30,416 bases of DNA from an archaeon (GCA_035289185.1 DATDXT010000033.1:1-30416), one strand, 5' to 3'. Positions 2,573-30,416 are shown, counted from the first letter of the stretch. Made by a program: numbers and translations. The notes: generated by a model from the sequence alone, not told the origin.

Positions 2573-2628
2573 ACTTATAAAACTCTTTAAACTAGCATAA
2601 ATTATTGTTAATTAAGGCGAATTGCCTA

Positions 2629-3369
2629 ATGACAAATCCCATACAACTTAACATTAAAAAAGCATTGGCAGATAGGCTGGCAGAGTATCTTTTTGAAGAG
2701 GTGACGACAAATCCAAATTTCGAAGCATTTAAAATGTATTTTTTGGAAGATATCGATAATTTTTACAAGACTAAATCAAACAAATCTTCAGGTTTGTCAA
2801 TATCGTACCAATTTTTGGACGGCTACGATCAAAATACAGACGACATAAAAAAAGCAGTCGATGTTTTTAAAAACGTCACTTCTTATTTGTCAAGAATGCA
2901 GTATTTTTCCCACGATTCTATAAGAAAATCATACAGAAAACAATTGGAAACTTTCAAGGAGTTCAATATAGGCAAAACTCATATTGATAATTACATAAAA
3001 ATTTACGAACAGATTTTTGATGTTGCTAAGACTAAAGACAGAATCATCGAATTTTTAGTAAAAGAGGCAAATGCCTATGGAAATTGGGAAAAAGTAATAT
3101 TGAAAGAAAATAGATACAGAATAATAAGAAATTTTTTCCCAACAGAAAAAAACTATGTTAAATTCGTCAAAAAAGAAATTGTTGCAAAAGAACAATTGTC
3201 AAAGTGCATAAGAAGTATAATGATGTTCCATGAAAACAACAAGCCATCCGAAAGAACTATCTACAGTTTAATAATTGAAGAAGATATGGCATCCTTGTCC
3301 AAAAAACTTAGGACAGTCCAATTGCAGAGAGAAGTCGCAGAAATTTATGGAAATCTGGTGTCACCATAA
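2629..3369 (+). CDS. Hypothetical protein (orphan, no recognisable motif)
   Basis: The ORF-track ORF 2605..3369 begins at TTG. The first in-frame ATG is at 2629. The gene is visibly more A/T-rich than its flanking genes and is convergent with rpoD, with only 4 nt between the two stops. Confidence 0.55.
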   Translation: MTNPIQLNIKKALADRLAEYLFEEVTTNPNFEAFKMYFLEDIDNFYKTKSNKSSGLSISYQFLDGYDQNTDDIKKAVDVFKNVTSYLSRMQYFSHDSIRKSYRKQLETFKEFNIGKTHIDNYIKIYEQIFDVAKTKDRIIEFLVKEANAYGNWEKVILKENRYRIIRNFFPTEKNYVKFVKKEIVAKEQLSKCIRSIMMFHENNKPSERTIYSLIIEEDMASLSKKLRTVQLQREVAEIYGNLVSP

Positions 3370-5323: not shown

Positions 5324-7787
5324 CTACTCCACCTCTTTCTACTTTGGACGGATCTATCCCATCTCCGCCTGGGAAAAATTGCACTATGTTGTTTGAACTA
5401 TCCCTTACTGTACCATCGTATTCTACTTTCAAATCCTGCAATGCGCCTACAAGCCTTCTTTCCATGTAACCGGAATGTCTTGTCTTGAGAGACTTGTCCA
5501 TCAAGGATTCTCTTGAGTTGATTGCATCAAAAAAGAACTCGAAAGGCATAAGCCCATTCACGAAACCTCTTCCTACAAAACCACCTGTCTCCAAAGTCAC
5601 ATCTCCTTTTCTGAAATGAGGAAATACTCTTTGATAGTATCCTTTTTCTATCCTTTCGCCCATTATCATTTCCTGTCCGACCATTGCTGCAGTCTGTACT
5701 ATGTTGACTACATCTCCTCTTGCACCGCTTACAGCCATCTGCAACGTAGGATTGTCTTTCATATGTTTGGTGATGACGTCTCCAACCTCATTCAATGCTT
5801 TGTTGGCTCTTCTCTTGATCAATGTCTCTACACTTTCTTTCGGTGTCCTTCCCACCAAAATTTTCAATTCATTCTTCTTGTATTGCCTTAGCAAATCATC
5901 AGTCTCTGATTTAACCTGTACCAAGATATCTCTTACTTTTCTTTCTCCGCTCTCATCCAATGACTGATCTGATATGCTTATTGAAAATCCATGTTTCATC
6001 AAGAAGCTGAGAGAAAGCTTTGAAAGCTTGTTCAAAAATTCTATGACATATGCACTGCCGAACTGGTCGCCCATCTTGCTCAATATCTTTCCACTCTCTG
6101 CACCAACTGCGGCTTTATCAATATATCCTTCCTTTAACATACCATCTTCTATTACAACTTTTTCACCGGACTTGGCTCTGAATTCTATGAACAGTCCTTT
6201 AGGCAGGAAAAGACTCAATATCTCCTTTCCATTCATTTTGTTCTTGTCAGGTATCTCTATGTTCTGGTCAGCCGATCTTATCAGCTGTATGAAATCCTTC
6301 CTTTCCAATTCAGGATTGTACTTGGTCAAAAGATAAAGACCAGTTACATAATCTTGTCTCAATCCAATAATAGGACCGGAAAATCTGGGACTTCTCAAAT
6401 TCTTTTCTACAGACATCAAGTTCTCAGCTTCGACAATCGCTTCCTCTAATTGTGGTATATGCAAGTTCATCTCATCCCCGTCGAAATCTGCGTTATAAGG
6501 AACAGTGACTATAGGGTTCAATCTCAATGTCCTGTGGTCCAAAACCTTTACTCTGTGTGCCATTATACTCATCCTGTGCAATGATGGTTGGCGATTGAAG
6601 AAAGATATATCTCCATTGATCAAATGCCTTTCAACAATATATCCGGGAGATAATTCTTTTGTCAATTCCTTACCATTTTCAGCAGTTACCTTTTTCTTCC
6701 TAGCATCAGGTCTTATGATGTAGTTTGCACCAGGCCATACTTCAGGTCCACGCTCTACAAACTTCTTCACAGTTTCCAGATTTTCTGATGTTATCCTGAT
6801 AGGAACAGTCAATTCTTTTGCTATGACCATAGGCACTCCTACTTCATCTATGTCTATGAATGGGTCTGGACTGATTACACTTCTTGCACAAAAATTCACG
6901 CGCTTGCCAGCAAGGTTTCCCCTGAACCTGCCTTCCTTCGTCTTCAATCTCTGCGATAATGTTTTCAATATTCTTCTTGATCTGTGTCTTGCAGGAGGCA
7001 CGCCTGTAAGTTCATTGTCGAAATAAGTAGAAACGTGATATTGTACAAGCTCCCATAGGTCAACAAGTATGAAATCCGGCGCTCCCAATTCTATGTTCTC
7101 CCTCAACCTCTCATTTATTCTTACAATGTCTACAAGCTTGTGAGTCAAATCATCTTCAGACCTTTCTCCTGTCTCCAAAGTAATCGACGGTCTGACAGAA
7201 ACTGGAGGCACAGGGAACAATGTCAGGACAAGCCATTCTGGCCTGAAGTTCCTGAATCCCATTAATTTGAAATCTGCATCTGTGACCTTCTCCAACTTTT
7301 CCCTTATCTGCACAGCGCTCAATATCTCGCTGCCGTCTGCTATGCTGTAAGGCTTTATGAACTTCAACTTCCCTTGTTCGGCCTTGCAGTAGGGGCATTT
7401 CTTTTTGACAGCTTTTATCAGATCCTTCAAGCTGGTCTTCTTTTCTTTTGCCTTGTCCAATTCTTTTTCATCTATCATTATCCTGCTGCACTTTTTGCAT
7501 GTGACTTTCAAGATAGAGAAAATAATCTTTGCATAAAGAACATGTATGATAGGTTTTGTCAATTCTATATATCCAAAGTGTCCGTTGCAGTCACCGATAG
7601 TTCCACCACAAGTCCTGCATCTTATTCCAGGATCGACGACTCCCATTCTTGGATCCATTATGCCACCTTCTATAGGATAGCCTTCCTCATCATAAAGATC
7701 AGTCTTAGTAATCTTTGCCGCAGCCATCTTCTTTACCATTTCTGGATTTACTATTGTGAATTCTATCGAGTTAACTAGCATAATCAT
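5289..7787 (-). CDS. rpoA1: DNA-directed RNA polymerase subunit A'
   Basis: Contains the catalytic [10 protein letters not shown] motif and N-terminal zinc-finger cysteines (CRTCGG..C..H, CKKCSR). The ORF track starts at 7829. I prefer the ATG at 7787, which shares its A with the rpoB' TGA stop (TGATG). Confidence 0.93.
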
Positions 7788-11538: not shown

Positions 11539-12339
11539 TCAATGTCGCAAATCCAGGACACGTCTGCTCATGTAAAGTACAAAGATTGCAAGCAGAGGAA
11601 ATCCTAAAAACACCACGATGTTCAATGTAAGACCTGAGTATGTATTTGGAAAATCTGCTATATAGAAAAGAGTACCTAATGCAACAAAGTAAATCAATGT
11701 GCTGTAGATCAATTTGCTGAATTTTCTTATGTCTTTGAACTGGTAGTAGAGTATGCTGTATGCAACTGAAAGCAAAAGTATCATCTGGAACAGCATGTAT
11801 ATTCCAAAAGTGCTGTAAAAAGGTTCTGCCATGAAAATTAACTGCCATAATCCAAGATCTGTGCCTCCTCTTACGTCTTGGGTATATCCAGAAGTCACTG
11901 TGTAGCACCAAAAGAAGTCATGCAGGTTGTTTGCAGCGAATCCTATGAAAAAGAAAGCAGCAAAAGTAAGTAAGAAATTCCTCATTGGAAATCTTTTTAT
12001 TTTAAGCAGGAACAGTGACCAGAAGTCGGCGAATGCAAAAGGCAGTAACATGAACAAAGAACCTCCATAGAGCCAGAAACCAAAATTCCAAAGCTGTGGC
12101 AGTCCAAGTGCTTTGGCATGGAAGTTAGCTGCCACGAAAATTATAAAAATGAAAAGCGAAACAGAGAAACAGACTTTCAGATTATAGAAATTTTTAAGTT
12201 TCTTTCCAGAAAGGAACAATTTTGGTTTTTTCTGCACGAATCTTTTTAATTTTCCTGTCAGAAGAACATATGCAAACCCCGCGTAAAGAAGCGCGAAAAT
12301 TATTGCCACATGTAAAGTTTTTGCAAGTTCAGGAGTCAT
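11539..12339 (-). CDS. Polytopic membrane protein of unknown function
   Basis: About 266 aa with multiple long hydrophobic segments (about 7). The ATG at 12339 shares one base with the TGA stop of the upstream nucleotidyltransferase (TGATG), which suggests translational coupling. Confidence 0.7.
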   Translation of the reverse strand: MTPELAKTLHVAIIFALLYAGFAYVLLTGKLKRFVQKKPKLFLSGKKLKNFYNLKVCFSVSLFIFIIFVAANFHAKALGLPQLWNFGFWLYGGSLFMLLPFAFADFWSLFLLKIKRFPMRNFLLTFAAFFFIGFAANNLHDFFWCYTVTSGYTQDVRGGTDLGLWQLIFMAEPFYSTFGIYMLFQMILLLSVAYSILYYQFKDIRKFSKLIYSTLIYFVALGTLFYIADFPNTYSGLTLNIVVFLGFPLLAIFVLYMSRRVLDLRH

Positions 12340-19549: not shown

Positions 19550-20890
19550 ATGGTATTGGAAGACCTTGGAGGAGGATTGAAAGCAGCTTTCAACAGGCTG
19601 GTATCCTCAGTCACAGTGGACAAGTCATTGATAGAGCAGACAGTCTCAGACATAAGAAGGGCTTTAATTCAATCAGATGTAAATCTCCAGCTTGCAAATG
19701 ATATTGCAGACAAAATAAAGAAAAGATCGATGGAGGAAAAGACACCTTCTGGCATGAGCAAGCGTGAACAAGTAGTAAAGATAGTATACGAAGAGCTCGT
19801 GAACATGCTTGGAAAGAAGTTCCAGCCATTGAAGCTTGACAAGAAACCATCCATCATACTTATGGCAGGCTTGCTTGGAGCAGGAAAGACCACAAGCACG
19901 GCCAAACTGGCAAGATACATACAGAAGCAGGGAAGGAATGTCGGAATCATAGGAGCAGACGTCTACAGACCAGCGGCTTTAGCGCAATTGGAACAGTTAG
20001 CAAAGCAGATCAACGTCCCAGTGTACGGTGAAAAGGGAAATAAGAATGCTGTGAAGATTGTAGAGAACGGGATGAAAGAGTTTGCGAAGAAAGATGTCAT
20101 CATTATCGATACAGCAGGCAGGTACAAGCAGTCAGAAGAGTTGATGAAGGAGATAAGGCAGATAGGCGAAAAGGTCAAGCCGGACGAGACCATACTCGTC
20201 ATCGATGCCACTATAGGACAGCAGGCCAAACAACAGGCTGAAGCATTCCACAAGGCAGTTCCGATTGGCAGCGTGATGATAACAAAGATGGATGGTACTT
20301 CAAAAGGCGGAGGCGCGTTGAGCGCTTGCAGTGTCACTGGAGCTAATGTCAAGTTCATAGGAATGGGAGAGAAGATAGACAGCCTTGAATTGTACGATCC
20401 TGACAGGTTTGTTTCCAGGATGTTAGGTTTGGGTGATTTGCAGACATTGCTGGAGAAGGTGAAGGAGACAGGAGTCAGCAAAGAATCAATGGAAAAGATG
20501 ATGGAAGGAAAATTCACATTGCAGGACTTCATAGAACAGATAGAGAATGTAAGCAAGGTAGGATCTTTATCGCAGATAGCAGGAATGATACCTGGGTTTG
20601 GCAGCGTGAAACTGCCTAAGGAAGCATTGGAGAAGCAGGAAAGAAAGATGAAGATATGGAAGTTCATAATCCAGAGCATGACAAAGAAGGAGAGAGAGGA
20701 TCCAGCGCTTGTTGATGCAGCTAGAATCAAGAGGATAGCAAAAGGTTCTGGCAGGCAGGAGATGGAAGTAAGGGAATTATTGAACCAGTACAGTTCAATG
20801 AAGAAGATGATGAAGGGACTTGGCGGAGTAAGAGGAATGGATAGGGGTCAGATGAAGGAATTGGCCAAGCAAATGGGATTGAAGTTTTGA
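19550..20890 (+). CDS. srp54: Signal recognition particle protein SRP54
   Basis: MVLEDLGGGLKAAFNRL..., GLLGAGKTTSTAKLA, DTAGR, TKMDGTSKGGGALS, and a Met-rich M domain. The ORF-track start at 19466 is a TTG, and the homologous N-terminus begins at the ATG at 19550. Confidence 0.95.
   Translation: MVLEDLGGGLKAAFNRLVSSVTVDKSLIEQTVSDIRRALIQSDVNLQLANDIADKIKKRSMEEKTPSGMSKREQVVKIVYEELVNMLGKKFQPLKLDKKPSIILMAGLLGAGKTTSTAKLARYIQKQGRNVGIIGADVYRPAALAQLEQLAKQINVPVYGEKGNKNAVKIVENGMKEFAKKDVIIIDTAGRYKQSEELMKEIRQIGEKVKPDETILVIDATIGQQAKQQAEAFHKAVPIGSVMITKMDGTSKGGGALSACSVTGANVKFIGMGEKIDSLELYDPDRFVSRMLGLGDLQTLLEKVKETGVSKESMEKMMEGKFTLQDFIEQIENVSKVGSLSQIAGMIPGFGSVKLPKEALEKQERKMKIWKFIIQSMTKKEREDPALVDAARIKRIAKGSGRQEMEVRELLNQYSSMKKMMKGLGGVRGMDRGQMKELAKQMGLKF
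20863..20890 (+). repeat. Direct repeat copy 1: the functional 3' end of srp54 (AKQMGLKF*)
   Basis: GGCCAAGCAAATGGGATTGAAGTTTTGA recurs at 21960-21987 with 23/28 identity by my manual alignment. Both copies encode AKQMGLKF-stop. Confidence 0.8.
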
Positions 20891-20897
20891 GTTATCA

Positions 20898-20913
20898 TGT
20901 AACACGTGTTACA
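20898..20913. promoter_or_regulatory. Perfect 16-bp palindrome TGTAACACGTGTTACA
   Basis: Read directly from the sequence, 8 nt after the srp54 stop. CACGTG core. Confidence 0.6.
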
Positions 20914-20921
20914 CAGCCAAA

Positions 20922-20968
20922 TTTTGTAGTCACCTATATACAAAAAGTTTATATATTGTAGTCACCTA
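20922..20968 (+). repeat. Two direct copies of TTGTAGTCACCTA flanking the fic TATA box
   Basis: TTGTAGTCACCTA occurs at 20924-20936 and 20956-20968, 32 bp apart. TTTATATA (20948-20955) lies between them. The second copy sits between the TATA box and the ATG. Confidence 0.8.
20948..20955 (+). promoter_or_regulatory. Putative TATA box for fic
   Basis: TTTATATA lies 22 nt upstream of the ATG at 20978 (leaderless geometry). Confidence 0.45.
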
Positions 20969-20977
20969 ATACTTATT

Positions 20978-21928
20978 ATGCACGTGGAAATAAGGAACGT
21001 TGGCAGAAAGAAAAAATATTACCTTGCACACTCATTCAGGCATGATGGGAAGGTCAAAAAGTTCAGATTTTATCTTGGAACTGATTTGACAAAAACAGAA
21101 TTAAACGACAAAATAAAACACGCAAAGGAAATTTTGGATGAGAGGATAAAAGCATATGGAAAAGTAGGAGACCCGTTCTATACAGTTATTACATCCAAAG
21201 AATTGGAATATGTAAAACATCTGGAAGATAAATACAGGATGGAAGAAATAAAAGTTTTGCACCTGTCTGAAAAAAACTGGGCCGAATTTACAAAAGCATT
21301 CACATACGATACCAATGCCATAGAGGGATCCACCGTGACTTTTACAGAAGTCTCTGACATATTGGAAAAAAAAGAATGGCCTAAAGAAAAGCAAAAATGG
21401 GAGATATCTGAAACATATGGAGTTGCGGAAGCCGTTGATTTCATAAGAAATTCTAGGGAAGACATCTCTTTAAAATTGATAAAAGAACTCCACAGGATTG
21501 TGTTCAAGAATTCCAAGGATTTTGCAGGCAAATTCAGGAAGAATGGAGAGGAGGTCGCTGTAGTGGACGCCTTTGGCAATATAAAACATAGAGGAGCCCC
21601 ATCATCGCAGATTGTCAGGCTTCTTAATGAATTGATACGTTGGTATGGCAAAAACAACCGGAAATATCCTGCATTGGTGTTGGCTGCTGTGGTACACAAT
21701 CATTTTGAAACTATACATCCATTCAAGGACGGAAATGGGAGAGTCGGAAGGCTTTTGTTGAACAACATATTGTTGAAGCACGGTTTGCCGCCCGTCAACA
21801 TAGAGCTGAAAAGCAGGCAGGAATACTACAGGGCACTGCAGGAATATCAAAAAATGAGGAATCTTCGACCAATGATAGAGCTTATATTGAGAGAATACAG
21901 GAGATTTATGAAAAGCCTGAACAGGTGA
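20978..21928 (+). CDS. fic: Fic-domain protein (AMPylator-type), class II with an N-terminal inhibitory helix
   Basis: 316 aa. Canonical Fic motif HPFKDGNGRVGR (HxFx[D/E]GNGRxxR). Upstream inhibitory motif TNAIEG ([S/T]xxxE[G/N]). Confidence 0.92.
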   Translation: MHVEIRNVGRKKKYYLAHSFRHDGKVKKFRFYLGTDLTKTELNDKIKHAKEILDERIKAYGKVGDPFYTVITSKELEYVKHLEDKYRMEEIKVLHLSEKNWAEFTKAFTYDTNAIEGSTVTFTEVSDILEKKEWPKEKQKWEISETYGVAEAVDFIRNSREDISLKLIKELHRIVFKNSKDFAGKFRKNGEEVAVVDAFGNIKHRGAPSSQIVRLLNELIRWYGKNNRKYPALVLAAVVHNHFETIHPFKDGNGRVGRLLLNNILLKHGLPPVNIELKSRQEYYRALQEYQKMRNLRPMIELILREYRRFMKSLNR

Positions 21929-21954
21929 CTACATTTCTATGTTTTGTAGTCACC
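21924..21954. repeat. Perfect 10-bp inverted repeat GGTGACTACA-N11-TGTAGTCACC (hairpin) overlapping the fic stop codon
   Basis: Read directly from the sequence. The left arm contains the fic TGA (21926-21928). The right arm is the same TTTTGTAGTCACC found at 20922-20934. Confidence 0.8.
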
Positions 21955-21959
21955 CAGTC

Positions 21960-21987
21960 GGCCAAGCAGATGGGATTGAAATTCTAG
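21960..21987 (+). pseudogene. Displaced remnant of an srp54 3' end (AKQMGLKF*)
   Basis: GGCCAAGCAGATGGGATTGAAATTCTAG. It differs from 20863-20890 only at CAA/CAG, AAG/AAA, TTT/TTC and TGA/TAG, which are all synonymous or stop-to-stop. Confidence 0.7.
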
Positions 21988-21995
21988 AAATCCAT

Positions 21996-22958
21996 CTATT
22001 TTAGATAGTTGTAAATGGTTCTAGATACATTGCTGGCTGTTTCACTGAAATCTTTTTTTGTTGTCCCAGAACTCATTATACATAACATATAAGGTTTGTT
22101 TGGTGCATAGATTATTCCACAATCATGATAGCTTTTTGTAGGACCCCAATCGCCTATCTTATGAGCCACTTTTATATTGTCTGGCAAACCAGATACTATT
22201 CCGTAATCAAATTTTGTATCTGAAAGCAGAGAAAGTATAAAGTTAGAAAATGTTCTTCTAAGATAGGCAGAATAGTATAAAGCGCGTAAAATGTTCATAT
22301 AATTTTTTGGAGTGATTGCAGTCGAACTTATATCAGGCGAAAATGAGGGTGGAGGAAGTCCCATTGCAATATAAGCTTCTGCCAGATCGCCATATGTCAG
22401 TTGTCTGACAAGTACATTGTATGCTGTGTTATCAGATTCGTTTATAACAAAGTTCAGAGCAGATTTCACATCAATGTCATATCCATATCCCTTAGAAGCT
22501 AGACTGCCAAATGTAAGATTAGGTTCTATATCAGCCTCGGAAATTGTCAATTTTGTTTCCATAGACAGGTAGCCATCCTCTAATTTTTTTACTATAGCGA
22601 TCACTGCTGGAGTTTTAAGTAGGCTTGCTGGTACGAACATATCCCTTTCATTAATTCCAAACCATGCTCCTGTTATAAGGTCTTCAAAATAAATACCATA
22701 ATGGCCTTTTGACGAGTTTGTTATTTTCTCAACTTCTGTTTTTAATGGTGTATACGAAACTGTAAGGTATTGTTGTCCCCGAAGAAAATTATTCACTTCC
22801 ATACTTGCTGTCTGAGGATCAATGAGTGCATAATTATCAGAACGGTCTCTTTCCCAAGAGTTGCTTATGATGTAAACTATGAGCGAAATATTTATAACAA
22901 CCATTATAGAAAACCAAAACTTGAGAGATTTCAAATCTATTTCAATTTTAGACACCAT
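21996..22958 (-). CDS. Class-A beta-lactamase-like / penicillin-binding-fold serine hydrolase with an N-terminal membrane anchor
   Basis: SxxK (ASLLK), SDN (ESDNTAYN) and KTG-like (HKIGD) motifs in the right order and spacing. N-terminal TM segment FWFSIMVVINISLIVYIISN. The ORF-track start at 22967 is TTG, and the ATG at 22958 is preferred. Confidence 0.72.
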   Translation of the reverse strand: MVSKIEIDLKSLKFWFSIMVVINISLIVYIISNSWERDRSDNYALIDPQTASMEVNNFLRGQQYLTVSYTPLKTEVEKITNSSKGHYGIYFEDLITGAWFGINERDMFVPASLLKTPAVIAIVKKLEDGYLSMETKLTISEADIEPNLTFGSLASKGYGYDIDVKSALNFVINESDNTAYNVLVRQLTYGDLAEAYIAMGLPPPSFSPDISSTAITPKNYMNILRALYYSAYLRRTFSNFILSLLSDTKFDYGIVSGLPDNIKVAHKIGDWGPTKSYHDCGIIYAPNKPYMLCIMSSGTTKKDFSETASNVSRTIYNYLK

Positions 22959-22966
22959 TTCTACCA

Positions 22967-22996
22967 ATTATACAATAAATAGATTTATTGTATAAT
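22967..22996. promoter_or_regulatory. 30-bp near-perfect palindrome ATTATACAATAAAT-AG-ATTTATTGTATAAT in a divergent promoter region
   Basis: Two perfect 14-bp arms (22967-22980 and 22983-22996), checked base by base. Lies between the serine-hydrolase ATG (22958) and the trmY ATG (23015). Confidence 0.75.
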
Positions 22997-23014
22997 AAAC
23001 CAAAGATAACTTTC

Positions 23015-23614
23015 ATGAGAGAATTCATCCTAAGGGCATCCAAGACAGTGACCAATCCTAACTACATCAATCTGAATGACTTGCCTGGTGCAGGAAGACT
23101 TGATCTTGTTTGCAGGTGTGTTACAAATGCTTTGTTCATCTCCAACGACATGCGCAGAGATACAATCATCCATGTCGTGCTGGAAGGCCCAAACTACCCG
23201 CCTAAGACTGTAAGTTTTGATGGAAACGAGTTGAGAAGTCTTGCTCCGGACGAAAGGAACTGCGCATCCCACATAAAGATAGCGTTGGAAAGAGGAGACA
23301 GTCTAAAGATAGGAGAAAGCAAGAAATCTGAGGACGGTATAACTGTAAGCAAGAAAAGCTTTGAGGCTTGGATAAAGGAGAAGAGCAAGACAAACCAGTT
23401 GATATATCTTCATCCTGAAGGTAAGGACATAAGGGAGTTCAAGTTCGAGAAAGATGTCTGTTTTGTGATGGGCGACCACGTGGGTTTGGAAAAAGTAACC
23501 GAGAAGCTTCTGAAGAGGTTCGGTGCTGTAAAAGTAAGTCTGGCTCCTGCATACTATCTGGCATCGCAATGCATAACCATCTGCCATAACGAGCTTGATT
23601 TAAGGCTAAAGTAG
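23015..23614 (+). CDS. trmY: SPOUT-class tRNA (pseudouridine54-N1)-methyltransferase TrmY-like protein
   Basis: MREFILRASKT...LPGAGRLDLVCRCVTNALFISNDMRRD...APDERN matches my recollection of the archaeal TrmY (DUF358) N-terminal signature. The ATG at 23015 is preferred over the ORF-track TTG at 22988. Confidence 0.8.
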   Translation: MREFILRASKTVTNPNYINLNDLPGAGRLDLVCRCVTNALFISNDMRRDTIIHVVLEGPNYPPKTVSFDGNELRSLAPDERNCASHIKIALERGDSLKIGESKKSEDGITVSKKSFEAWIKEKSKTNQLIYLHPEGKDIREFKFEKDVCFVMGDHVGLEKVTEKLLKRFGAVKVSLAPAYYLASQCITICHNELDLRLK

Positions 23615-23617
23615 GGC

Positions 23618-23625
23618 TTTATATA
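23618..23625 (+). promoter_or_regulatory. Putative TATA box for the 23665-24747 operon
   Basis: TTTATATA lies 39 nt upstream of the ATG at 23665. AAGGTG (SD-like) sits 6 nt before the ATG. Confidence 0.4.
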
Positions 23626-23664
23626 CTTTTACTACCTTATAGTGACATAAGAAAGGTGTCTAAA

Positions 23665-24306
23665 ATGTCAGAGTTAAAAGAACTGTTAGGTTCATTGGAA
23701 GACTTGTCTAGCAGAGCAGCTTATCATGCTGTTAATCAGGAGCCAAGATTAGCTTATAAGACATTATCAGATTTAGAAAACATGCTAAACGATGAGAATG
23801 TTAAAAAAGTCTTACCTCAGAATTCTTACAATGCTTTTCTTGAAAGAAAAACCCAGATAGAAAATTATATGAACAAAACAAGTAAAAAAAGGACAGAATT
23901 TGCAAAAAAATCAATGGCCGCATCACAAGTATATGGTTTTTTATACAGCGCAGAAAATGCTTTAGAATCTGCAATATTATTCTCGTCTCCAAAGGAAGAG
24001 ATGAAATATTATGTGTCCTCTTTAGACTTTGTAAAGAAAATGGAAGCTATGTCTTTTAACTATGGAATAGATGTTCCACAGAGAGCCGTGGATTTCAAAC
24101 AAAAATTGGAAAAAGCAGCCAAAGACAGATATCTAAAACACGCAGATGCACTTATAGAATCGAAAAGATTCCCAGAAGCTGAAGACATGTTGAATGATGC
24201 AGAACAGTTTATAATTACATTAACAGATAAAGTCGATACAGAAGATCTTGACATAGAACAGCGTAGAAAAGTGATAAGAGAATCTTTTACTAGAACAGGT
24301 GATTAA
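23665..24306 (+). CDS. Hypothetical all-helical protein
   Basis: About 213 aa from the ATG at 23665 (the ORF track uses the GTG at 23656). Composition looks helical or coiled. No family motif recognised. Confidence 0.6.
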   Translation: MSELKELLGSLEDLSSRAAYHAVNQEPRLAYKTLSDLENMLNDENVKKVLPQNSYNAFLERKTQIENYMNKTSKKRTEFAKKSMAASQVYGFLYSAENALESAILFSSPKEEMKYYVSSLDFVKKMEAMSFNYGIDVPQRAVDFKQKLEKAAKDRYLKHADALIESKRFPEAEDMLNDAEQFIITLTDKVDTEDLDIEQRRKVIRESFTRTGD

Positions 24307-24307
24307 A

Positions 24308-24571
24308 ATGTCAGAACAAACAACTGTTAGAGAAGGTATTGCAAAACAGATTATGCTTAGTTATTTTCCAGAGCTTAGAAACGACCAGCCAAAAAATATG
24401 ATTAAAGTTTATGGAAGAGACCAGTCTGCCATAGGTTTCTACATTACAAAGATTGCTGGAGCTCCAAACAGAGCAGGAAGACCATTGTACAGAGTCAGAC
24501 AGGGAGAGATTGGTGGAACAACTGACATACCTATTACAGATCCTGAAAATTATAGAAGGGTATTAATGTAA
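24308..24571 (+). CDS. Hypothetical small protein
   Basis: 87 aa from the ATG at 24308, 1 nt after the upstream stop and preceded by GGTGAT (SD). Shares the same TAAAATGTCAGA start context as the upstream gene. Confidence 0.55.
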   Translation: MSEQTTVREGIAKQIMLSYFPELRNDQPKNMIKVYGRDQSAIGFYITKIAGAPNRAGRPLYRVRQGEIGGTTDIPITDPENYRRVLM

Positions 24572-24609
24572 TAACTTTATTTTCCAGAGAAGGCGAGCGT
24601 CTTTTAGAA

Positions 24610-24747
24610 ATGGCTGAAAGAGCAGTAAGATCGAAAGAATATGCTGAAAAAGTTGAAGCTAAGGTTGATGCAGCAGAGGCAAGATATAGAGAGACGCGTC
24701 CTTTATGCAACCCTGTTATCATTGAGAAAAAGCCGTTGCCTGAATAG
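24610..24747 (+). CDS. Candidate small ORF (45 aa, MAERAVRSKEYAEKVEAKVDAAEARYRETRPLCNPVIIEKKPLPE)
   Basis: My own translation. It falls below the ORF-track size cutoff. It is on the same strand as the operon, 38 nt downstream of it. It reads as a helical, charged sequence. Confidence 0.3.
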   Translation: MAERAVRSKEYAEKVEAKVDAAEARYRETRPLCNPVIIEKKPLPE

Positions 24748-24779
24748 AATATAGATTATAGTTACAGATTAGTTTTGTG

Positions 24780-24810
24780 AAAAATAAAAAAAAGAAAAAA
24801 GAAAGGAAAA
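24780..24810 (-). terminator. Oligo-T tract (minus strand) downstream of ftsZ
   Basis: The plus strand reads A-rich (AAAAATAAAAAAAAGAAAAAAGAAAGGAAAA), so the minus-strand transcript carries long U runs. This is the usual archaeal termination signal. Confidence 0.5.
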
Positions 24811-24814
24811 GTTT

Positions 24815-24889
24815 TCACTCATCTATTGTGTTCTCAGTAGAATCCTCTGAATCGAATTCATCCAGGGGGTCCCACATGTCTTCTTCCAT
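24815..24889 (-). CDS. Candidate micro-ORF (24 aa, MEEDMWDPLDEFDSEDSTENTIDE)
   Basis: My own translation. The ATG at 24889 is preceded by AAGGAAGGGAAAAG. The stop lies 4 nt before the oligo-T tract. The ORF sits between the ftsZ stop and the terminator. Confidence 0.25.
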   Translation of the reverse strand: MEEDMWDPLDEFDSEDSTENTIDE

Positions 24890-24937
24890 TTCTTTTCCCT
24901 TCCTTTAAGCTTTTTGAAGAATTGGGCGAGGTTACCC

Positions 24938-26116
24938 TCACCTAATTATGTCAATACCGAGCGCTCTACTGATTTCCTTAACTACAGGCTTCTCGAAGCT
25001 TACAGGACCTACTATGTACGGCGACTTTACGCCAGTTATGATAGTGATTACCTGTAATCTTCCTTCGAAATCAGGAAGTACTCTTGCTCCCCAGTAGATT
25101 TGTGCTTGGGAATCCAGATGTTTGGACACTGATTCACCGATCATATTGACCTCATCTAATCTGAGATCAGTACCTCCGGTTATGTGTATCAAAGCACCGC
25201 TGGCTCCTGCGTAATCCACTTCAAGCAAGGGGTTTTCCAATGCCTTCGTTATGGCGTCTTTTGCTCTGTCGGAACTGTTTGACTCGCCAACACCGATAGC
25301 TGCCACTCCACCAGAATGCATCAACGCTTTCACGTCTGCATAGTCCAGGTTTACTAGACTTGGCAGGGTTATAGTCTCGGTTATTCCTTTGACCATGCTA
25401 GCGACTAGTTCGTCTGCTACTGCGAATGCCTGTTGGATCGTAAGGTTTCCTGCATACTTCAGCAATCTATCGTTCTCGATGACAATGGCTGTATCACAGA
25501 CTTGTCTGAGCATAGCCAAACCATCTTCGGCTTTTATTTGCCTAGATCCTTCCAACTTGAAAGGCATGGTAACTACTGCTATTACAATAGCTCCCATTGA
25601 TTTTGCCACTTCGCAAACGATTGGAATGCTTCCAGTACCGGTACCTTTTCCAAGGCCCGCAAGAGCGAACACTAGGTCTGCACCATCTATCGTGTCTTTG
25701 ATTTCGCTTCTAGACTCTTCAGCAGCTTTCTTACCCACTTCTGGGTAACCGCCTGCGCCTAGACCGCGAGTCAACTCTTTTCCTATGAGAATCTTTTTGT
25801 CTGCTTTTCCTACTGCTAAATGTTTAGCATCTGTGTTCAATGCTATGGTTGTTGCACCGTCAATGCCCATTTCTGTCAATCTTGTGATTGTGTTTTGTCC
25901 CGCACCACCGCAGCCGACTACTACGATCTTTGCTCTTTTCACAGCAAAGCCGAATTCCTGCTCGGCCAACTTGTAATAATCTACATTACTGTATGTAGCG
26001 CCAGATGTGTTCTCTAGTTTGAATCTGTTTCGAGGTGTTTCTTCTACCCAATTGCTCTTCCCTATCGCGTTTTTTATTATCGAATCCATTTTTTGTTCAC
26101 CTATGTTTTTTATCAT
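24938..26116 (-). CDS. ftsZ: Cell division GTPase FtsZ
   Basis: 392 aa with VVGCGGAGQNT, NTDAKHL, GAGGYPEVGKKAAEES, AGLGKGTGTGS (a variant of GGGTGTG) and ENDRLL. Confidence 0.93.
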   Translation of the reverse strand: MIKNIGEQKMDSIIKNAIGKSNWVEETPRNRFKLENTSGATYSNVDYYKLAEQEFGFAVKRAKIVVVGCGGAGQNTITRLTEMGIDGATTIALNTDAKHLAVGKADKKILIGKELTRGLGAGGYPEVGKKAAEESRSEIKDTIDGADLVFALAGLGKGTGTGSIPIVCEVAKSMGAIVIAVVTMPFKLEGSRQIKAEDGLAMLRQVCDTAIVIENDRLLKYAGNLTIQQAFAVADELVASMVKGITETITLPSLVNLDYADVKALMHSGGVAAIGVGESNSSDRAKDAITKALENPLLEVDYAGASGALIHITGGTDLRLDEVNMIGESVSKHLDSQAQIYWGARVLPDFEGRLQVITIITGVKSPYIVGPVSFEKPVVKEISRALGIDIIR

Positions 26117-26138
26117 ATATTTTCCAGTATCTAAAACC

Positions 26139-26146
26139 TTTTATAT
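26139..26146 (-). promoter_or_regulatory. Putative TATA box for ftsZ
   Basis: The minus strand reads ATATAAAA, 22 nt upstream of the ATG at 26116. Confidence 0.4.
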
Positions 26147-26170
26147 GGTCTTGGATAACTTATCTTTAGA

Positions 26171-26233
26171 AAGAAATAAACTATTTTATTGGTACTCGTA
26201 CCAAAAAAGAAATAATCTCGACAATTATTTCTT
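26171..26233. promoter_or_regulatory. Cluster of repeats in the ftsZ/receiver divergent region
   Basis: AAGAAATAA occurs at 26171-26179 and 26207-26215 and inverted at 26225-26233. The latter two form a 10-bp perfect inverted repeat, AAGAAATAAT-N7-ATTATTTCTT (26207-26233). TTGGTAC-TC-GTACCAA lies at 26189-26204. Confidence 0.55.
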
Positions 26234-26395
26234 CCAATTTACAAGTTAAAGCTATTACTATAAAACGATGTATATATTCAATCATACACTTTCGCTGAAT
26301 TTTCGGAAAAGAATCTGAATTTTCATACAAAATTTTGGACTGGAAGATGATTTTATAAAGATTTCTGTCCAATTGTTGTTTGGAGATGGTAATAG

Positions 26396-26833
26396 ATGCA
26401 GGTTTTTGCAGATAGAACAGAGACGATAGAGAAACCACATGAAGTTAGCTATGGAAACAGAGAAAAGATGGCTCTGCATGTGGATGATGAGGAAGAATGG
26501 AGAGACATTGTTGAAAGGTCGCTGACAAGTTTGGGCTATAAGGTAGTGCAGGCGGCCAATTTCCAAGACGCAGAGTTTTCTGCAAAGAACCAAAGGTTTG
26601 ATCTTTATGTGATTGATGGTACTTTTCCCATGAAACCCGAGGAAGCTGGTGACAGGGAAGCCGGATTGAAGCTTTACAAGCTATTGAATGACTTGCATGG
26701 CGATAGTTCGAAATATGTGCTCCTTTCTGGTGATGGCTATGTGGAAGCAATATGCAATAGGGACGGAATACCTTTCTTGTATAAAAGACATTTTGCTAAA
26801 AAATTCCAGGATTTTGTCAGAAAACTAGGTTAA
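26396..26833 (+). CDS. Stand-alone CheY-like receiver domain protein
   Basis: VDDEEE (acidic pocket), DLYVIDGTFP (candidate phospho-acceptor Asp), VLLSGDG and a later YK. No output domain. GGAGATGGT lies 5 nt upstream of the ATG at 26396. The alternative ATG at 26468 would give MALHVDDEEE... Confidence 0.7.
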   Translation: MQVFADRTETIEKPHEVSYGNREKMALHVDDEEEWRDIVERSLTSLGYKVVQAANFQDAEFSAKNQRFDLYVIDGTFPMKPEEAGDREAGLKLYKLLNDLHGDSSKYVLLSGDGYVEAICNRDGIPFLYKRHFAKKFQDFVRKLG

Positions 26834-26917
26834 AAGGTAAATAGTCATTACTTGAGGATAATGAAAGCTTTAAATAGTTTGCTGTCCTATAATAAGTTAA
26901 GAAAATGGTGAGGAAAA

Positions 26918-27313
26918 ATGAACGATATGTGGACTGAGAAAGACGGCTTATCGCATTTGAATATGCTACCAAATTTATTGGTGGCATTGGCCGAGGGTAA
27001 CGGTTCCTTGAGAAAATATTCTGAAACAAGATATGGTTTAGCTTCTGTAACCTACAAAATCAGAATAAGAGAATATTCTTTGCGTTTGGAGGACGGCACA
27101 GATGTTCTATATAAAGTAGAAGAAGATGGCATACAAAAATTACAAGAAACCATAAAGCTAAATGGAAAGGTTGCGTTTGAAAGACCAAATGTTATTAATT
27201 TCGAAAACACATTCTACGAATTTAATCCACGATCAAAGCTAGATAAGTTGCATGAAATAAATAAGCATGAAATAAATAAGCATGAAATAAAAAAGTTTGT
27301 AGACTTAGGCTAG
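26918..27313 (+). CDS. Hypothetical protein with a C-terminal HEINK tandem repeat
   Basis: 131 aa with GGTGAGG (SD) 5 nt upstream of the ATG. The 3' end overlaps the convergent cca stop by 9 nt. Confidence 0.5.
   Translation: MNDMWTEKDGLSHLNMLPNLLVALAEGNGSLRKYSETRYGLASVTYKIRIREYSLRLEDGTDVLYKVEEDGIQKLQETIKLNGKVAFERPNVINFENTFYEFNPRSKLDKLHEINKHEINKHEIKKFVDLG
27251..27295 (+). repeat. 15-bp tandem repeat x3 (CATGAAATAAATAAG), encoding HEINK-HEINK-HEIKK
   Basis: Read directly from the sequence. The third copy has one mismatch. Confidence 0.9.
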
Positions 27314-28741
27314 ATTTTCCTTCTCAAAATAAGTCCTTAAAAATATACAAAAATCTTCATTCGCCATCAAAGCTTTGGAAATAGAATCTGCATCCGAATA
27401 AATCCTGAACCCTTTCATCATCTGCTCTGCTATGTAGTTCGGTATTCCCTTAGCCTTCAGTGTGTTTATGTCTTTTTTCAAGCTATCGACAAGCTTGTCC
27501 CTCGCGTTCAAGAACCTTCTTTCTATCTCCACAACCCATTTATCATTCTCTATAAAAGGACCGTTGATGATGTCTCCTTTCATGTATTTTTCAATGAACC
27601 TCTTTGCATCGTCTACGTCAAAAACGCTAGGTCCGATCCTCTTTTGAACATTGGGCAGATTCTCATAAAATTCCATCTCCAATAAAACTACAGCAATGTC
27701 CTTATCGTTCGTATAGACGTCCTTTCTCAAGACCTTGAACTCATTTTTAGTTTCTTCCAGTATGCTTTCTATCCTGTCTGCGAACTTCCTCAATTGTGGC
27801 CAAAGAATATCAGGAACAACCTTCGGAGGATCCATCTTTACCACCAGAAGCCCTGTGTTTCTTTTCTCTAGATAACTGGTCAGTTCTGCAGTAGTCAACG
27901 GCTTTACATTCTTTTTGATGAAAAATGATTTTGCAGGCTCTTTTAAGAAAGCTTTTACAACTTTTATAAGTTTGAAGAAATTCTCTGGCGAAACAGCGGA
28001 TGCAACGTTCCTGTTCTTGTCTGTAGGGTCTATCAAAACCAATGCCTCCCCCCTGAACTTGTGATTCAGGCTCTTGTAATCCTTCTTATCATAGTATTTT
28101 TCCGTGTCTATAATTTCCCCAGGCTTCCAGTCTGCAATGTTTTTCAAAACGTTCATGAATTTGCCATAGTTTATTACCAGTACTTCGCATGCATATCCAG
28201 ACAAACCTTGCGCTCTAGCATCAGCGCCATAGACTCCACCAGCTTTGCATAATTGCTTCAAAAGTCTGACCTCATCTGAAAGCGATTGTGGCAGGTTCTT
28301 GTCAAGATATCTTACATGGAAAGGTGTCCTATCAACTGCAGACTTTATCTCCTTCGTAGATTCTACAGCATAACAAGGCACTATGTCCACTTGCATTCCA
28401 TCGATTTCGCCTGTCACATAAGGATGCTGCGCATATTCCACCCAAGACGTTCCTTTCAACCTTTTGATCACCGCCCTACCTACAGATATCCCTATGTCTT
28501 CCAGTTCCTTCTCTGGCAGGCTTTTGGGAAAAACAAGGAAAACATCGCATTCTTTCTTGTCAGGCAGCCATGTATTCCTAGTAACGCTTCCAGCAGACAT
28601 CGCTTCTGCACCATACTTTTCTATCTCTATGTCCGCAAAAGCAACAATCTTCTTAGACAAAGTCTTTAGCTTTTCCTCGTCTTCCTTGCTCGGCTTTACT
28701 ATCTTCAATGCTTCGTTGATGACTTTCTGATAATTGTCCAT
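27305..28741 (-). CDS. cca: Archaeal class-I CCA-adding enzyme (tRNA nucleotidyltransferase)
   Basis: AGSVTRNTWLPDKKECDVFLVFP matches the GS...ExD catalytic block of archaeal CCA enzymes. The homologous N-terminus starts at MDNYQKVINEALKIVKP (ATG at 28741). The ORF-track ATG at 28774 lies inside the putative TATA box. Confidence 0.92.
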   Translation of the reverse strand: MDNYQKVINEALKIVKPSKEDEEKLKTLSKKIVAFADIEIEKYGAEAMSAGSVTRNTWLPDKKECDVFLVFPKSLPEKELEDIGISVGRAVIKRLKGTSWVEYAQHPYVTGEIDGMQVDIVPCYAVESTKEIKSAVDRTPFHVRYLDKNLPQSLSDEVRLLKQLCKAGGVYGADARAQGLSGYACEVLVINYGKFMNVLKNIADWKPGEIIDTEKYYDKKDYKSLNHKFRGEALVLIDPTDKNRNVASAVSPENFFKLIKVVKAFLKEPAKSFFIKKNVKPLTTAELTSYLEKRNTGLLVVKMDPPKVVPDILWPQLRKFADRIESILEETKNEFKVLRKDVYTNDKDIAVVLLEMEFYENLPNVQKRIGPSVFDVDDAKRFIEKYMKGDIINGPFIENDKWVVEIERRFLNARDKLVDSLKKDINTLKAKGIPNYIAEQMMKGFRIYSDADSISKALMANEDFCIFLRTYFEKENLA

Positions 28742-28760
28742 AAATTTATTTTCTATCTGC
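28721..28760 (+). repeat. Direct repeat copy 1: the cca start codon region
   Basis: GACTTTCTGATAATTGTCCATAAATTTATTTTCT... recurs at 29261-29300. Identity is 31 of the first 34 nt and 33/40 overall by manual alignment. It contains the reverse complement of ATGGACAATTATCAGAAAGTC (MDNYQKV). Confidence 0.75.
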
Positions 28761-28773
28761 AAGACTATAATCA

Positions 28774-28781
28774 TTTATAAA
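28774..28781. promoter_or_regulatory. Palindromic TATA box TTTATAAA, possibly shared by divergent cca and relB
   Basis: It lies 21 nt upstream of the relB ATG (28803) and 32 nt upstream of the cca ATG (28741) on the opposite strand. Confidence 0.4.
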
Positions 28782-28802
28782 CTGTAGTAACAATAGGAAT
28801 TT

Positions 28803-28988
28803 ATGACAGAGCTTGAAACTTTGCATGCAGAAATAGATGAAATAAGGTCAAATGTGACAAAGATACTATTCATACTTGAAAACGAAGGCGAAGTAAATAA
28901 AAAAGTATTGAAAGAGCTGAAAGAAAGTAAAAGTGCTACAAAAGACAAATTCTTGCCCCACGAAACTCTTAAGAGATCTTTGAAATGA
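28803..28988 (+). CDS. relB: Archaeal-type RelB-like antitoxin
   Basis: 61 aa, helical and charged, resembling archaeal aRelB as I recall it. ATGA stop/start overlap with the downstream RelE gene. Confidence 0.7.
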   Translation: MTELETLHAEIDEIRSNVTKILFILENEGEVNKKVLKELKESKSATKDKFLPHETLKRSLK

Positions 28989-29242
28989 CATGGCATATAG
29001 AATGGTACAGAAAGGCCGCAAAAAATCTGGAATCTTTACCCAAAGAAATTCGTGATAGAGTTGTTAAATACATAGACAAAGTTCAACAAGCCCCATTTAA
29101 TTTTCTAGAACACTTTGAGCTGAAAGGCTATTATAAAATCAGAGTAGGTGATTATAGGGCAATTGCTTCTGTAGATTTTCAAAACAAAATCATTTCTATT
29201 ATTATATTTGATCATAGGAAAAGAATTTACAAAAGACTTTAA
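28985..29242 (+). CDS. relE: RelE/ParE-family toxin (mRNA interferase)
   Basis: 85 aa. WYRKAAKNLESLPKEIRDRV...YYKIRVGDYRAIASVDFQNKIISIIIFDHRKRIY is a typical RelE/StbE pattern. Confidence 0.88.
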   Translation: MTWHIEWYRKAAKNLESLPKEIRDRVVKYIDKVQQAPFNFLEHFELKGYYKIRVGDYRAIASVDFQNKIISIIIFDHRKRIYKRL

Positions 29243-29260
29243 TAAGTTCCATTATAAAAA

Positions 29261-29300
29261 GACTTTCTGATAAATGTCCATAAAATTACTTTCTGTTTAG
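29261..29300 (+). repeat. Direct repeat copy 2: orphaned pseudo-start of cca
   Basis: GACTTTCTGATAAATGTCCATAAAATTACTTTCT... On the minus strand it reads ATGGACATTTATCAGAAAGTC (MDIYQKV) and then hits a stop after a few codons. Confidence 0.75.
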
Positions 29301-29416: not shown

Positions 29417-29899
29417 ATGGAAGAAGGTCTGACAGCAGGACAGCAAGAACTTGTAGACAAACTAGATAAAATTATTGATAAATTAGATAGCAGACATGGA
29501 TATGTTGACAGCGAAAGTCTAAGACATAATGTGGAAAGCATGTATAACTTAGGAATGTTGAATTATGATGGTGGTTTTAAAAGAACAGTTGCAGGAAGAG
29601 AATCTTCTATACCAAATGAAATGCTAGAAGTCGCAATTGCCCTGTACGTTGATAAGTCTCTTATTAAAAAATTGAGAGCCTTGGCAGCAGCGAATGACAT
29701 AGAACTCGATCCAAGCAAGGTCAGATATGTCGTAGCTTTATACGGATTGGATAAAGAAGAAAAGGGATATGTGGTGGAGCTTATTAAAAACCATGAGGAG
29801 AGATGGGGAAAGAGGATTGAAGATGGTGTTTTGTACAGACCAAATAAAGAAAATGTGGCAACGATAACAGATTTATTGTCAAGAGAAGATGCCAAATAA
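29417..29899 (+). CDS. Hypothetical protein
   Basis: 160 aa from the ATG at 29417, preceded by AGTGAT (SD-like). The ORF track uses the GTG at 29408. No motif recognised. Confidence 0.55.
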   Translation: MEEGLTAGQQELVDKLDKIIDKLDSRHGYVDSESLRHNVESMYNLGMLNYDGGFKRTVAGRESSIPNEMLEVAIALYVDKSLIKKLRALAAANDIELDPSKVRYVVALYGLDKEEKGYVVELIKNHEERWGKRIEDGVLYRPNKENVATITDLLSREDAK

Positions 29900-29992: not shown

Positions 29993-30416
29993 ATGACAGG
30001 AACAAAAAGCAATTATGTGAGTGAATGGAAAACAGTTAGTGACAATAGTCTCTTGGAAATCATGCCAGAATTTTTAATCGATTGGATAATAAGAGGTTCT
30101 AATGAGCAAGGCAGAGGAATAGATGAATATACTATAGAGCCTAAACACAACCCATTAGCAGCTTATTTTCAAAAACTTGGTATTAAGACAGATAGACAAG
30201 TAGGATGTTCTGTTATAGAATATATAAGAGTGACAAATTCTGGTGCACGTTATGTTTACAGAAGCCTATCACCACGTGATCATTATGAAACAGATTCTGA
30301 AACGAAGCTTAACAGGGTAGAACAGATACTTGTCGGAGACTCTGTAAAATTGGAAAGAATTGTAAGAGAAGAGCTGGTTAAAGTAGAAGAAAAGTATAAT
30401 GATCCGACACGTTTCT
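29993..30416 (+). CDS. Partial CDS (N-terminal 141 codons, runs off the window end), hypothetical protein
   Basis: My own translation from the ATG at 29993 is open to the window end: MTGTKSNYVSEWKTVSDNSLLEIMPEFLIDWIIRGSNEQGRGIDEY... It is absent from the ORF track because it has no stop in the window. Confidence 0.5.
   Translation, partial: MTGTKSNYVSEWKTVSDNSLLEIMPEFLIDWIIRGSNEQGRGIDEYTIEPKHNPLAAYFQKLGIKTDRQVGCSVIEYIRVTNSGARYVYRSLSPRDHYETDSETKLNRVEQILVGDSVKLERIVREELVKVEEKYNDPTRF

Follow-up and report, generated by a model that had tools for sequence, protein, structure and literature searches.

How can accessory genes come to lie at the extreme ends of essential genes in a tightly packed archaeal genome, with the essential genes left intact and no recombinase at hand? 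The question is raised by two loci in a contig of 30,416 nucleotides (nt) (GCA_035289185.1 DATDXT010000033.1:1-30416), which in its whole length is the window of this analysis. One is a unit with a fic gene at the 3' end of srp54, the gene for the signal recognition particle GTPase; the other is a relBE-like gene pair at the 5' end of cca, the gene for the archaeal CCA-adding enzyme. The host genome is compact and archaeal, with ~39% G+C, and almost all genes of the window are housekeeping genes, including those for RNA polymerase subunits, fibrillarin/Nop5, prefoldin, FtsY, SRP54, TrmY, FtsZ and the CCA-adding enzyme. The nearest named homologues of the window SRP54 belong to Candidatus Aenigmatarchaeota (DPANN; 56-63% identity); the host genome is a very compact, Aenigmatarchaeota-like DPANN genome. 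The original prediction held that both loci share one architecture, namely a toxin-type module with its own TATA box and no integrase, bounded by a direct repeat that copies the terminus of the essential gene, and proposed a cassette-capture mechanism that acts at gene ends. We detected this architecture at both loci and the same pattern in two other DPANN contigs (L079 and L053), and suggest, tentatively, recombinase-independent insertion at gene termini followed by spread between strains.

Direct repeats were scored +1/-2 at a spacing of 200-2500 nt over the whole window, with 60 dinucleotide shuffles as controls. The two top repeats were those at srp54 (direct repeat 1, DR1; score 25) and at cca (direct repeat 2, DR2; score 18), and the shuffle maxima had a mean of 13.7 and never exceeded 17; both repeats exceed all shuffles and are real, beyond chance. 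The DR1 copies are 28 nt long, 23/28 identical (82%) with a longest identical run of 11 bases, and enclose a 1.07-kb single transcription unit with fic. The DR2 copies, identical at 31 of 34 positions in the core (91%; 28721-28754 vs 29261-29294) and extendable to 37 nt, enclose the 0.54-kb relBE-like pair. Both loci are present in independent ENA, JGI and Logan assemblies of aquifer metagenomes with identical structures, which rules out an assembly artefact as the source of the repeats. The Pfam scans detected no integrase or transposase domain in any sizeable open reading frame (ORF) of the window, in line with the claim that neither locus carries one, and the window has no tRNA gene or Rfam match as an insertion target. 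The features of both loci are listed in Table 1.

Table 1. Features of the two repeat-flanked loci (window coordinates; a stop codon ends the peptides of both DR1 copies).
Feature	Position	Strand	Evidence or remark
srp54 (signal recognition particle GTPase)	19550-20890	+	intact, target gene; Pfam PF00448, PF02978, PF02881 (SRP54, SRP_SPB, SRP54_N)
DR1 copy 1, functional srp54 end	20863-20890	+	last 9 codons including TGA stop (AKQMGLKF)
Perfect 16-nt palindrome TGTAACACGTGTTACA	20898-20913	.	read from sequence; 8 nt past srp54 stop, inside left insert end
fic promoter region	20925-20966	+	two direct TGTAGTCACC boxes (20925-20934, 20957-20966) around TATA-like TTTATATA (20948-20955)
fic, 316 aa	20978-21928	+	Pfam PF02661, E=1.7e-21
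Inverted box pair GGTGACTACA-N11-TGTAGTCACC	21924-21954	.	overlaps fic stop codon
DR1 copy 2, dead srp54 3' end	21960-21987	+	AKQMGLKF, stop TAG
Beta-lactamase-like serine hydrolase gene	21996-22967	-	Pfam PF13354
cca (archaeal CCA-adding enzyme)	27305-28741	-	intact, target gene; Pfam PF09249, PF21133, PF01909
DR2 copy A, functional cca start	28721-28757	-	first 7 codons (MDNYQKV) and 13-16 nt of 5' flank
Palindromic TATA-like TTTATAAA, then TGTAGTAAC	28774-28791	.	TTTATAAA at 28774-28781
61-aa ORF (relB-like)	28803-28988	+	antitoxin by position only; 4-nt overlap with toxin gene
ParE/RelE-superfamily toxin, 85 aa	28985-29242	+	Pfam PF05016, E=6.8e-11
DR2 copy B, dead cca start	29261-29297	-	MDIYQKV and 5' flank; adjoins native intergenic region
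160-aa gene	29417-29899	+	without assigned function

In the DR1 copy distal to srp54, reading frame and stop codon are preserved, and 8 nt separate it from the stop of the convergent beta-lactamase-like gene. This gene is presumed to be the original convergent neighbour of srp54, and a dead srp54 end at 8 nt from the convergent stop is a natural ancestral arrangement. All five differences between the DR1 copies preserve the peptide AKQMGLKF and its stop, including TGA versus TAG, at a neutral-drift probability of ~1.7e-4; the synonymous-only differences point to two coding alleles and not to one decaying copy. The dead end together with the 8-nt spacer (21968-21996) can fold as a small hairpin (GATGGGATT...AAATCCATC, ~-7 kcal/mol) between the convergent genes, which may be what is left of a terminator once shared by the two genes and may constrain the dead copy.

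The first codons of cca are part of DR2. The cca start had been placed at 28774; homologue lengths and N-termini favour the ATG at 28741, which is most likely the true start. The relBE-like pair consists of a toxin gene of the RelE/ParE fold and an adjacent, co-oriented small gene, as in type II toxin-antitoxin modules, with the antitoxin being putative. The fold (PF05016) and the small upstream partner are shared with known ParE/RelE modules, from which the pair differs in its partner: a family match was sought for the 61-aa product and none was found. A sequence that overlaps the relE stop codon (AAAAGACTTTAATAAGTTCCAT, 29230-29258) might be a degenerate third copy of the cca start; its alignment to copy B has p ~0.02 and its alignment to copy A is not significant, so that this copy is weak. 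On the other side of cca, a short tandem repeat CATGAAATAAATAAG of ~3 copies (27245-27290) encodes HEINK repeats at the C-terminus of a 131-aa ORF beside the cca stop.

Gene-end duplications of this type were found four times in ~170 kb of DPANN sequence, two in the window and one each in L079 and L053. The L079 repeat is perfect (23/23 nt) and consists of the last six codons and stop of a TFS/RpoM-like gene (ending TWREYE); it brackets a 2.25-kb insert with a 10-nt periodic array, a Fic unit and two small genes, and 5 nt separate its dead copy from the stop of the neighbouring helicase gene. The L053 repeat (704-722 and 1133-1151, 18/19 nt) is the 3' end of a Lon-like protease gene, LTYFVE in one copy vs LKYFVE and stop in the other, and brackets a single 129-aa non-toxin gene with a signal-peptide-like N-terminus. 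The L053 insert starts immediately before the native stop and a chance stop two codons on closes the frame, while the dead end lies 12 nt ahead of the ATG of the next gene; a junction inside the coding sequence, before the stop, fits target duplication and not an element with a tailored gene end. A further repeat, in L015, was rejected as derived from tandem paralogues.

No recombinase family is listed in the L079 and L053 gene tables, and no sequence is common to the four repeats, which makes one site-specific recombinase unlikely. The dedicated cassette-capture recombinase of the original prediction thus finds support neither in the repeats nor in the gene content of the window. Its description of the cargo as toxin-type modules holds in part: the ParE/RelE toxin is recognised by its Pfam domain, the ParE/RelE toxin apart, the Fic protein is not half of a two-gene toxin-antitoxin system but self-inhibited and SoFic-like. 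The L053 cargo is a non-toxin gene, and with one non-toxin among the four cargoes, toxin specificity is doubtful.

The Fic protein combines the HPFxDGNGRxxR motif with an upstream inhibitory TNAIEG (TxxxEG) in one polypeptide, together with HPFKDGNGRVGR. Its best relatives of solved structure in PDB are FICD, and PADLOC matches it to SoFic, a single-gene defence model, and to PDC-S04. The inhibitory motif within the Fic polypeptide itself argues for a single-gene, self-inhibited Fic and not for a class I FicTA pair; the protein is predicted to be a class II, FICD-like, self-inhibited AMPylase encoded by a single gene. Both motifs are shared with SoFic and FICD, and the window unit differs from these by four GTAGTCACC boxes and by an N-terminal extension of 65 aa without a family match; no family assignment was found for the N-terminal 100 aa.

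TATA boxes 21-22 nt before the start codons had been predicted for both modules, and both boxes were located. The TATA-like TTTATATA ends 22 nt before the fic ATG. The TATA-like TTTATAAA ends 21 nt before the relB-like ATG and, on the opposite strand, precedes the cca ATG by 33 nt, so that it could serve as a bidirectional promoter for the relB-like ORF and cca. The leaderless transcripts predicted for the two modules fit this TATA-to-ATG geometry. The relB-like promoter TTTATAAACTGTAGTAAC (28774-28791) has the same register as the fic promoter TTTATATATTGTAGTCAC (20948-20965), and the pattern TTTATAWAYTGTAGTMAC occurs in the window at these two promoters only and in 0/100 shuffles, a statistic that is optimistic for a pattern defined post hoc.

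Homologues of the Fic protein with 66-70% identity are located at non-syntenic sites in other DPANN contigs, and all Fic units examined carry four GTAGTCACC boxes, two of them direct, on either side of the TATA box, and two at the stop codon in inverted orientation, GGTGACTAC-N11-13-GTAGTCACC (L074, 5949-5991 and 6943-6973; L076, 5949-5991 and 6943-6973; L079, 5950-5991 and 6940-6969). The boxes are thus retained in units with only 66-70% protein identity and in unrelated contexts. An uncompensated stem mismatch in L079 suggests that the boxes are DNA sites bound by a protein and not an RNA hairpin; they are likely the binding site of a regulator, possibly the N-terminal 65-100 aa region of Fic itself. 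Viral contigs yielded no Fic or RelE relatives, and the ten matches to the inverted-box pattern on viral contigs equal the chance expectation, with none beside a Fic gene; plasmid matches were distant bacterial Fic genes only.

No srp54 fragment is present at the Fic units of L074, L076 and L079, and their flanks differ. The 22-nt and ~40-nt repeats that flank Fic in L074 and L076 were considered as target duplications and rejected, being copies of a dispersed ~135-165-nt repeat, here called X. Five copies of X in the same orientation occur within 9 kb of L076 (1333-1466, 4143-4237, 5786-5920, 6977-7039 and 8605-8731), and three segments are found in L074 (2472-2529, 5891-5912 and 6976-7135). 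The X copies separate gene blocks (an MFS block, a HEPN-nucleotidyltransferase pair, the Fic unit and three small ORFs) and form a variable region resembling a cassette array. In L079, a ~170-nt array of 10-nt periodic CATTGAnnnn repeats (5766-5931), which resembles iterons, lies directly upstream of the Fic unit, and weaker arrays of the same type are located upstream of Fic in L074.

The direction of change was approached through relatives of the window genes. All contigs with an identical RelE, 160-aa, SRP54 or Fic protein proved to be filled, and since no empty site was found in any close relative, insertion is supported by indirect evidence. The scan of genome contigs with SRP54 gave nothing closer than 46% identity, and the scan of metagenome contigs with cca gave only a 56% relative and a 1.1-kb fragment. 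An apparent gene-less variant in L055 was rejected as a scaffold gap. Relatives with 78-81% SRP54 identity have no second srp54 end within 10 kb downstream. In L072, whose cca is 67% identical, the gene order is conserved (S10 ... 50-aa/44-aa pair, facing cca, then FtsZ and TrmY) and cca directly faces the pair, without relBE; this contig is too diverged for alignment of the cca junction. In the window lineage, the interval from cca to the homologous 45/51-aa pair is occupied by relB, relE, the 160-aa gene and a hypervariable gene. The presence of the last two genes in the same interval suggests that the region upstream of cca is an insertion hotspot. The hypervariable gene (29993-30416; vs L054, 1781-2203) has strongly divergent alleles of 140 vs ~163 aa with identical flanks in co-occurring strains.

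Co-occurring strains (compared with L046, L055 and L062) agree completely over kilobases, with the exception of short clustered-SNP patches at 11971-12131, 20323-20368, 25493-25571, 28049-28156 and 28592-28782, where ~15-20% of positions differ, mostly synonymously; such a mosaic is typical of repeated import from a diverged sister lineage, which is also seen as L071. The last of these patches, with 27 differing positions in a stretch of 150 nt (codon changes: 17 synonymous, 4 non-synonymous), spans the first 50 codons of cca, DR2 copy A and the first 25 nt of the cassette. It reaches into the left end of the cassette, suggesting that the donor lineage also has the cassette beside cca. A cassette-specific origin of this patch was rejected, as similar patches occur throughout the window and reflect general recombination. 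Homologous import from ~18%-divergent relatives is thus frequent in this population.

We favour, as a tentative explanation that falls a little short of an even chance, recombinase-independent insertion at the gene termini of a compact genome, with later spread by homologous recombination between strains. Two accessory modules with their own promoters and no recombinase, a FICD/SoFic-like Fic unit and a ParE/RelE-type pair, would have been inserted at the outermost ends of housekeeping genes. The insertion would duplicate 28-37 bp of the target, across the stop codon of srp54 or the start codon of cca, so that the gene-adjacent copy keeps the target gene intact and the distal copy becomes a dead gene end. 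The palindromic TATA box of the cassette probably gives cca a new promoter. The position at gene ends would be what survives selection when convergent genes are 5-10 bp apart. The arrangement would then be passed among related strains via ordinary homologous recombination in the flanking housekeeping genes, and a right-hand crossover at the distal repeat would leave there the recipient's own, recently functional gene end, which would explain the synonymous-only differences of the srp54 ends. The repeats of L079 (23/23) and L053 (18/19) fit copies that were identical at insertion; the two-allele copies of DR1 need the extra recombination step or a different mechanism.

Several points weigh against this explanation. 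We know of no enzyme that makes staggered breaks of 19-37 bp, and RelE and Fic, unlike restriction enzymes, do not cut DNA. The synonymous-only differences of DR1 are explained at least as simply by incoming DNA with its own srp54 end. The cca intergenic region was probably ~130 nt long, so that compactness does not force the start codon into the repeat. The missing cassette-free close relative counts here as well, together with the absence of significant flanking repeats at the other lineage-specific genes of the window. The L053 repeat, with a score of 16, is marginal alone, and in a crude enrichment control with loci from bacteria, spurious ORFs and ABC ATPase paralogues dominated the outcome.

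The two coding alleles at srp54 are what would be expected if small circular cassettes had integrated in the Campbell manner, each carrying its own host gene end as attachment site, with a recombinase encoded elsewhere, as for integrative mobilisable elements (IMEs) or cis-mobilisable elements (CIMEs), or with host recombination acting on 20-40 nt of homology. A replacement gene end borne by the element would account for five synonymous differences out of five, and the new 5' flank and TATA box of cca recall SXT, which likewise supplies a new 5' flank and promoter to prfC. Each cassette, 0.5-1.1 kb long, makes up a complete transcription unit, and the boxes at either end of the Fic unit are conserved in every lineage examined. 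A crossover between the two repeats would release the cassette as a circle, with the gene left whole. We nevertheless consider such integration rather unlikely: there is no recombinase in the window, the unrelated sequences of the four repeats would require several recombinases or none, and the longest run of identical bases in DR1 is 11. The L053 insert starts ahead of the stop codon and leaves the native C-terminus unrestored, the Fic units of L074, L076 and L079 lack an srp54 fragment, and the relatives with 78-81% SRP54 identity lack a second srp54 end within 10 kb. Homology-facilitated illegitimate recombination, already named in the original prediction, is still a live rival of lower probability. 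DNA of a related donor, with the cassette already beside the gene, would be anchored by homologous pairing and its far end joined illegitimately 21-28 nt inside the recipient gene end, leaving the donor gene end on one side and the displaced end of the recipient on the other. The synonymous-only differences of DR1, the missing recombinase and an end of the similarity precisely at the stop codon, or ~16 nt ahead of the start, would all follow, and the observed flow of ~18%-divergent DNA into the population fits, as does a cca-patch donor with the left end of the cassette beside cca. Against this, the illegitimate joint must fall within ~30 nt of a gene terminus in 4/4 cases, such events usually delete and do not duplicate recipient DNA, and the first arrival of the cassette at the gene end is merely shifted into the donor; the L079 repeat is perfect, and clear microhomology at the joints was not seen, the third copy at the relE stop being weak (p ~0.02).

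That the cassettes are the last remnants of larger, integrase-bearing proviruses or plasmids, in which internal deletions spared the toxin modules and two att sites, seems very unlikely to us. Toxin-antitoxin and Fic genes do resist loss, imperfect gene-end repeats are typical of old att sites, and the iteron-like CATTGA array and two unrelated genes of the L079 insert recall a decayed plasmid. Integrase fragments and other element genes are nevertheless absent between the repeats, each window insert is exactly one promoter-to-terminator unit with 5-90 nt to spare, the viral contig scans gave no relative of the cassettes, and the same decay would have had to occur independently at four different targets. 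We give the least credit to coincidence, by which small duplications, slippage or gene conversion would have made the repeats locally and with no tie to cassette arrival. The window offers only two cases, no empty site was found and the bacterial control was swamped by its own artefacts, all of which leave room for this idea; it has to face the finding that both repeats bracket exactly one foreign-looking transcription unit at a gene terminus, that no other repeat at 200-2500 nt spacing reaches significance in 30 kb, and that L079 and L053 have the same geometry.

A bolder version of element-borne gene ends, improbable in our judgement, is that these are recombinase-free mobile cassettes of DPANN archaea, for which the conserved termini of housekeeping genes act as portable attachment sites. 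If so, recombination between the gene-end copies would release a circle of 0.5-2 kb with one copy, and short-homology recombination of the host would re-insert it in a related cell, with the gene restored each time. The life cycle, or its control, would then involve the GTAGTCACC boxes of the Fic unit together with their counterpart at the relB promoter, a similar box.

Returning to insertion with target duplication as our favoured explanation, the nearest published parallel is insertion with long target duplication of restriction-modification modules, in which the repeats often span translation start or stop sites, direct repeats of >20-30 bp, beyond the usual length of transposon duplications, are the length criterion and the cases are defined by empty sites (PMC2853133; Furuta, Abe and Kobayashi 2010, NAR 38:2428; Nobusato et al. 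2000, Gene 259:99). The loci described here are similar in having a small selfish or addictive module without a mobility gene and repeats of tens of bp that would represent one target copy. The repeat lengths are 28 nt (DR1), 34-37 nt (DR2), 23 nt (L079) and 19 nt (L053), and no mobility gene was found at any of the four loci; in repeat length and in the lack of a mobility gene the loci agree with the published cases, and no empty site was found at close range. Unlike the restriction-modification modules, the inserts carry toxin-antitoxin or Fic genes or, in L053, an ordinary small gene, and none of these products cuts DNA. Further differences are the DPANN host, the imperfect match between the repeat copies of the window (82% and 91%) and the purely synonymous changes in DR1. 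We found no paper that reports gene-end duplication around Fic or toxin-antitoxin genes, or from any DPANN archaeon. Overall, the event looks like a kind already known from bacterial restriction-modification genes and not like a new type of mobile element.

Other known systems resemble these loci in part. Integration of phage 21/e14 at icd, of SXT/R391 at the 5' end of prfC and of ICESt1 at fda replaces the gene end, and CIMEs are integrase-less, cis-mobilisable derivatives of integrative elements. Such elements share with the cassettes a terminus repeat on both sides, an intact gene, silent changes in the element-side copy and a new 5' flank or promoter, as at cca. The differences are the absence of an integrase in 30 kb, inserts of only 0.5-1.1 kb that are single units, and repeats that are mutually unrelated; the CIME type of attachment site is not seen, as there is no recombinase in cis and no constant attachment sequence travels with the Fic units. 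Integron cassettes, including archaeal ones, and Xer-dependent pdif modules are likewise single-gene or toxin-antitoxin units of 0.5-1 kb that lack their own recombinase and have short, imperfect repeats at their borders. The window cassettes differ from them in having repeats that are host gene ends, and no attC- or dif-like site, attI or IntI, a distinction drawn without an attC model. The inverted boxes at the fic 3' end have an 11-13-nt spacer and are conserved as sequence, and the arrangement of L076 and L074, with repeat X between the blocks, is closer to a cassette array. Transposons and insertion sequences are marked by terminal inverted repeats, perfect target duplications of 2-15 bp and a transposase; here the insert ends have no terminal inverted repeats, the direct repeats are 19-37 nt long and there is no transposase.

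Two further observations concern other parts of the window. The segment 2501-3500 has a low G+C content (31.6% vs ~40%) and contains a 254-aa ORF (2605-3369, plus strand) without a family match, which sits amid minus-strand housekeeping genes; no flanking repeat was detected. A 26-nt similarity between the regions upstream of the 160-aa gene and of the neighbouring gene is marginal (p ~0.02).

DPANN genomes are tiny and tightly packed and have few recognisable mobile elements, yet their accessory genes move. The pattern known from bacterial restriction-modification genes, the mechanism of which has been open for 25 years, is extended here to toxin-antitoxin and Fic genes in archaea, and a short gene-terminus repeat enclosing 0.4-2.5 kb provides a search key for recent gene gains in metagenome-assembled genomes. 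The conserved four-box Fic unit is a tractable case for experiment. The two loci show a route by which such a genome may acquire defence and toxin genes that bring no recombinase, with its essential genes left unbroken.

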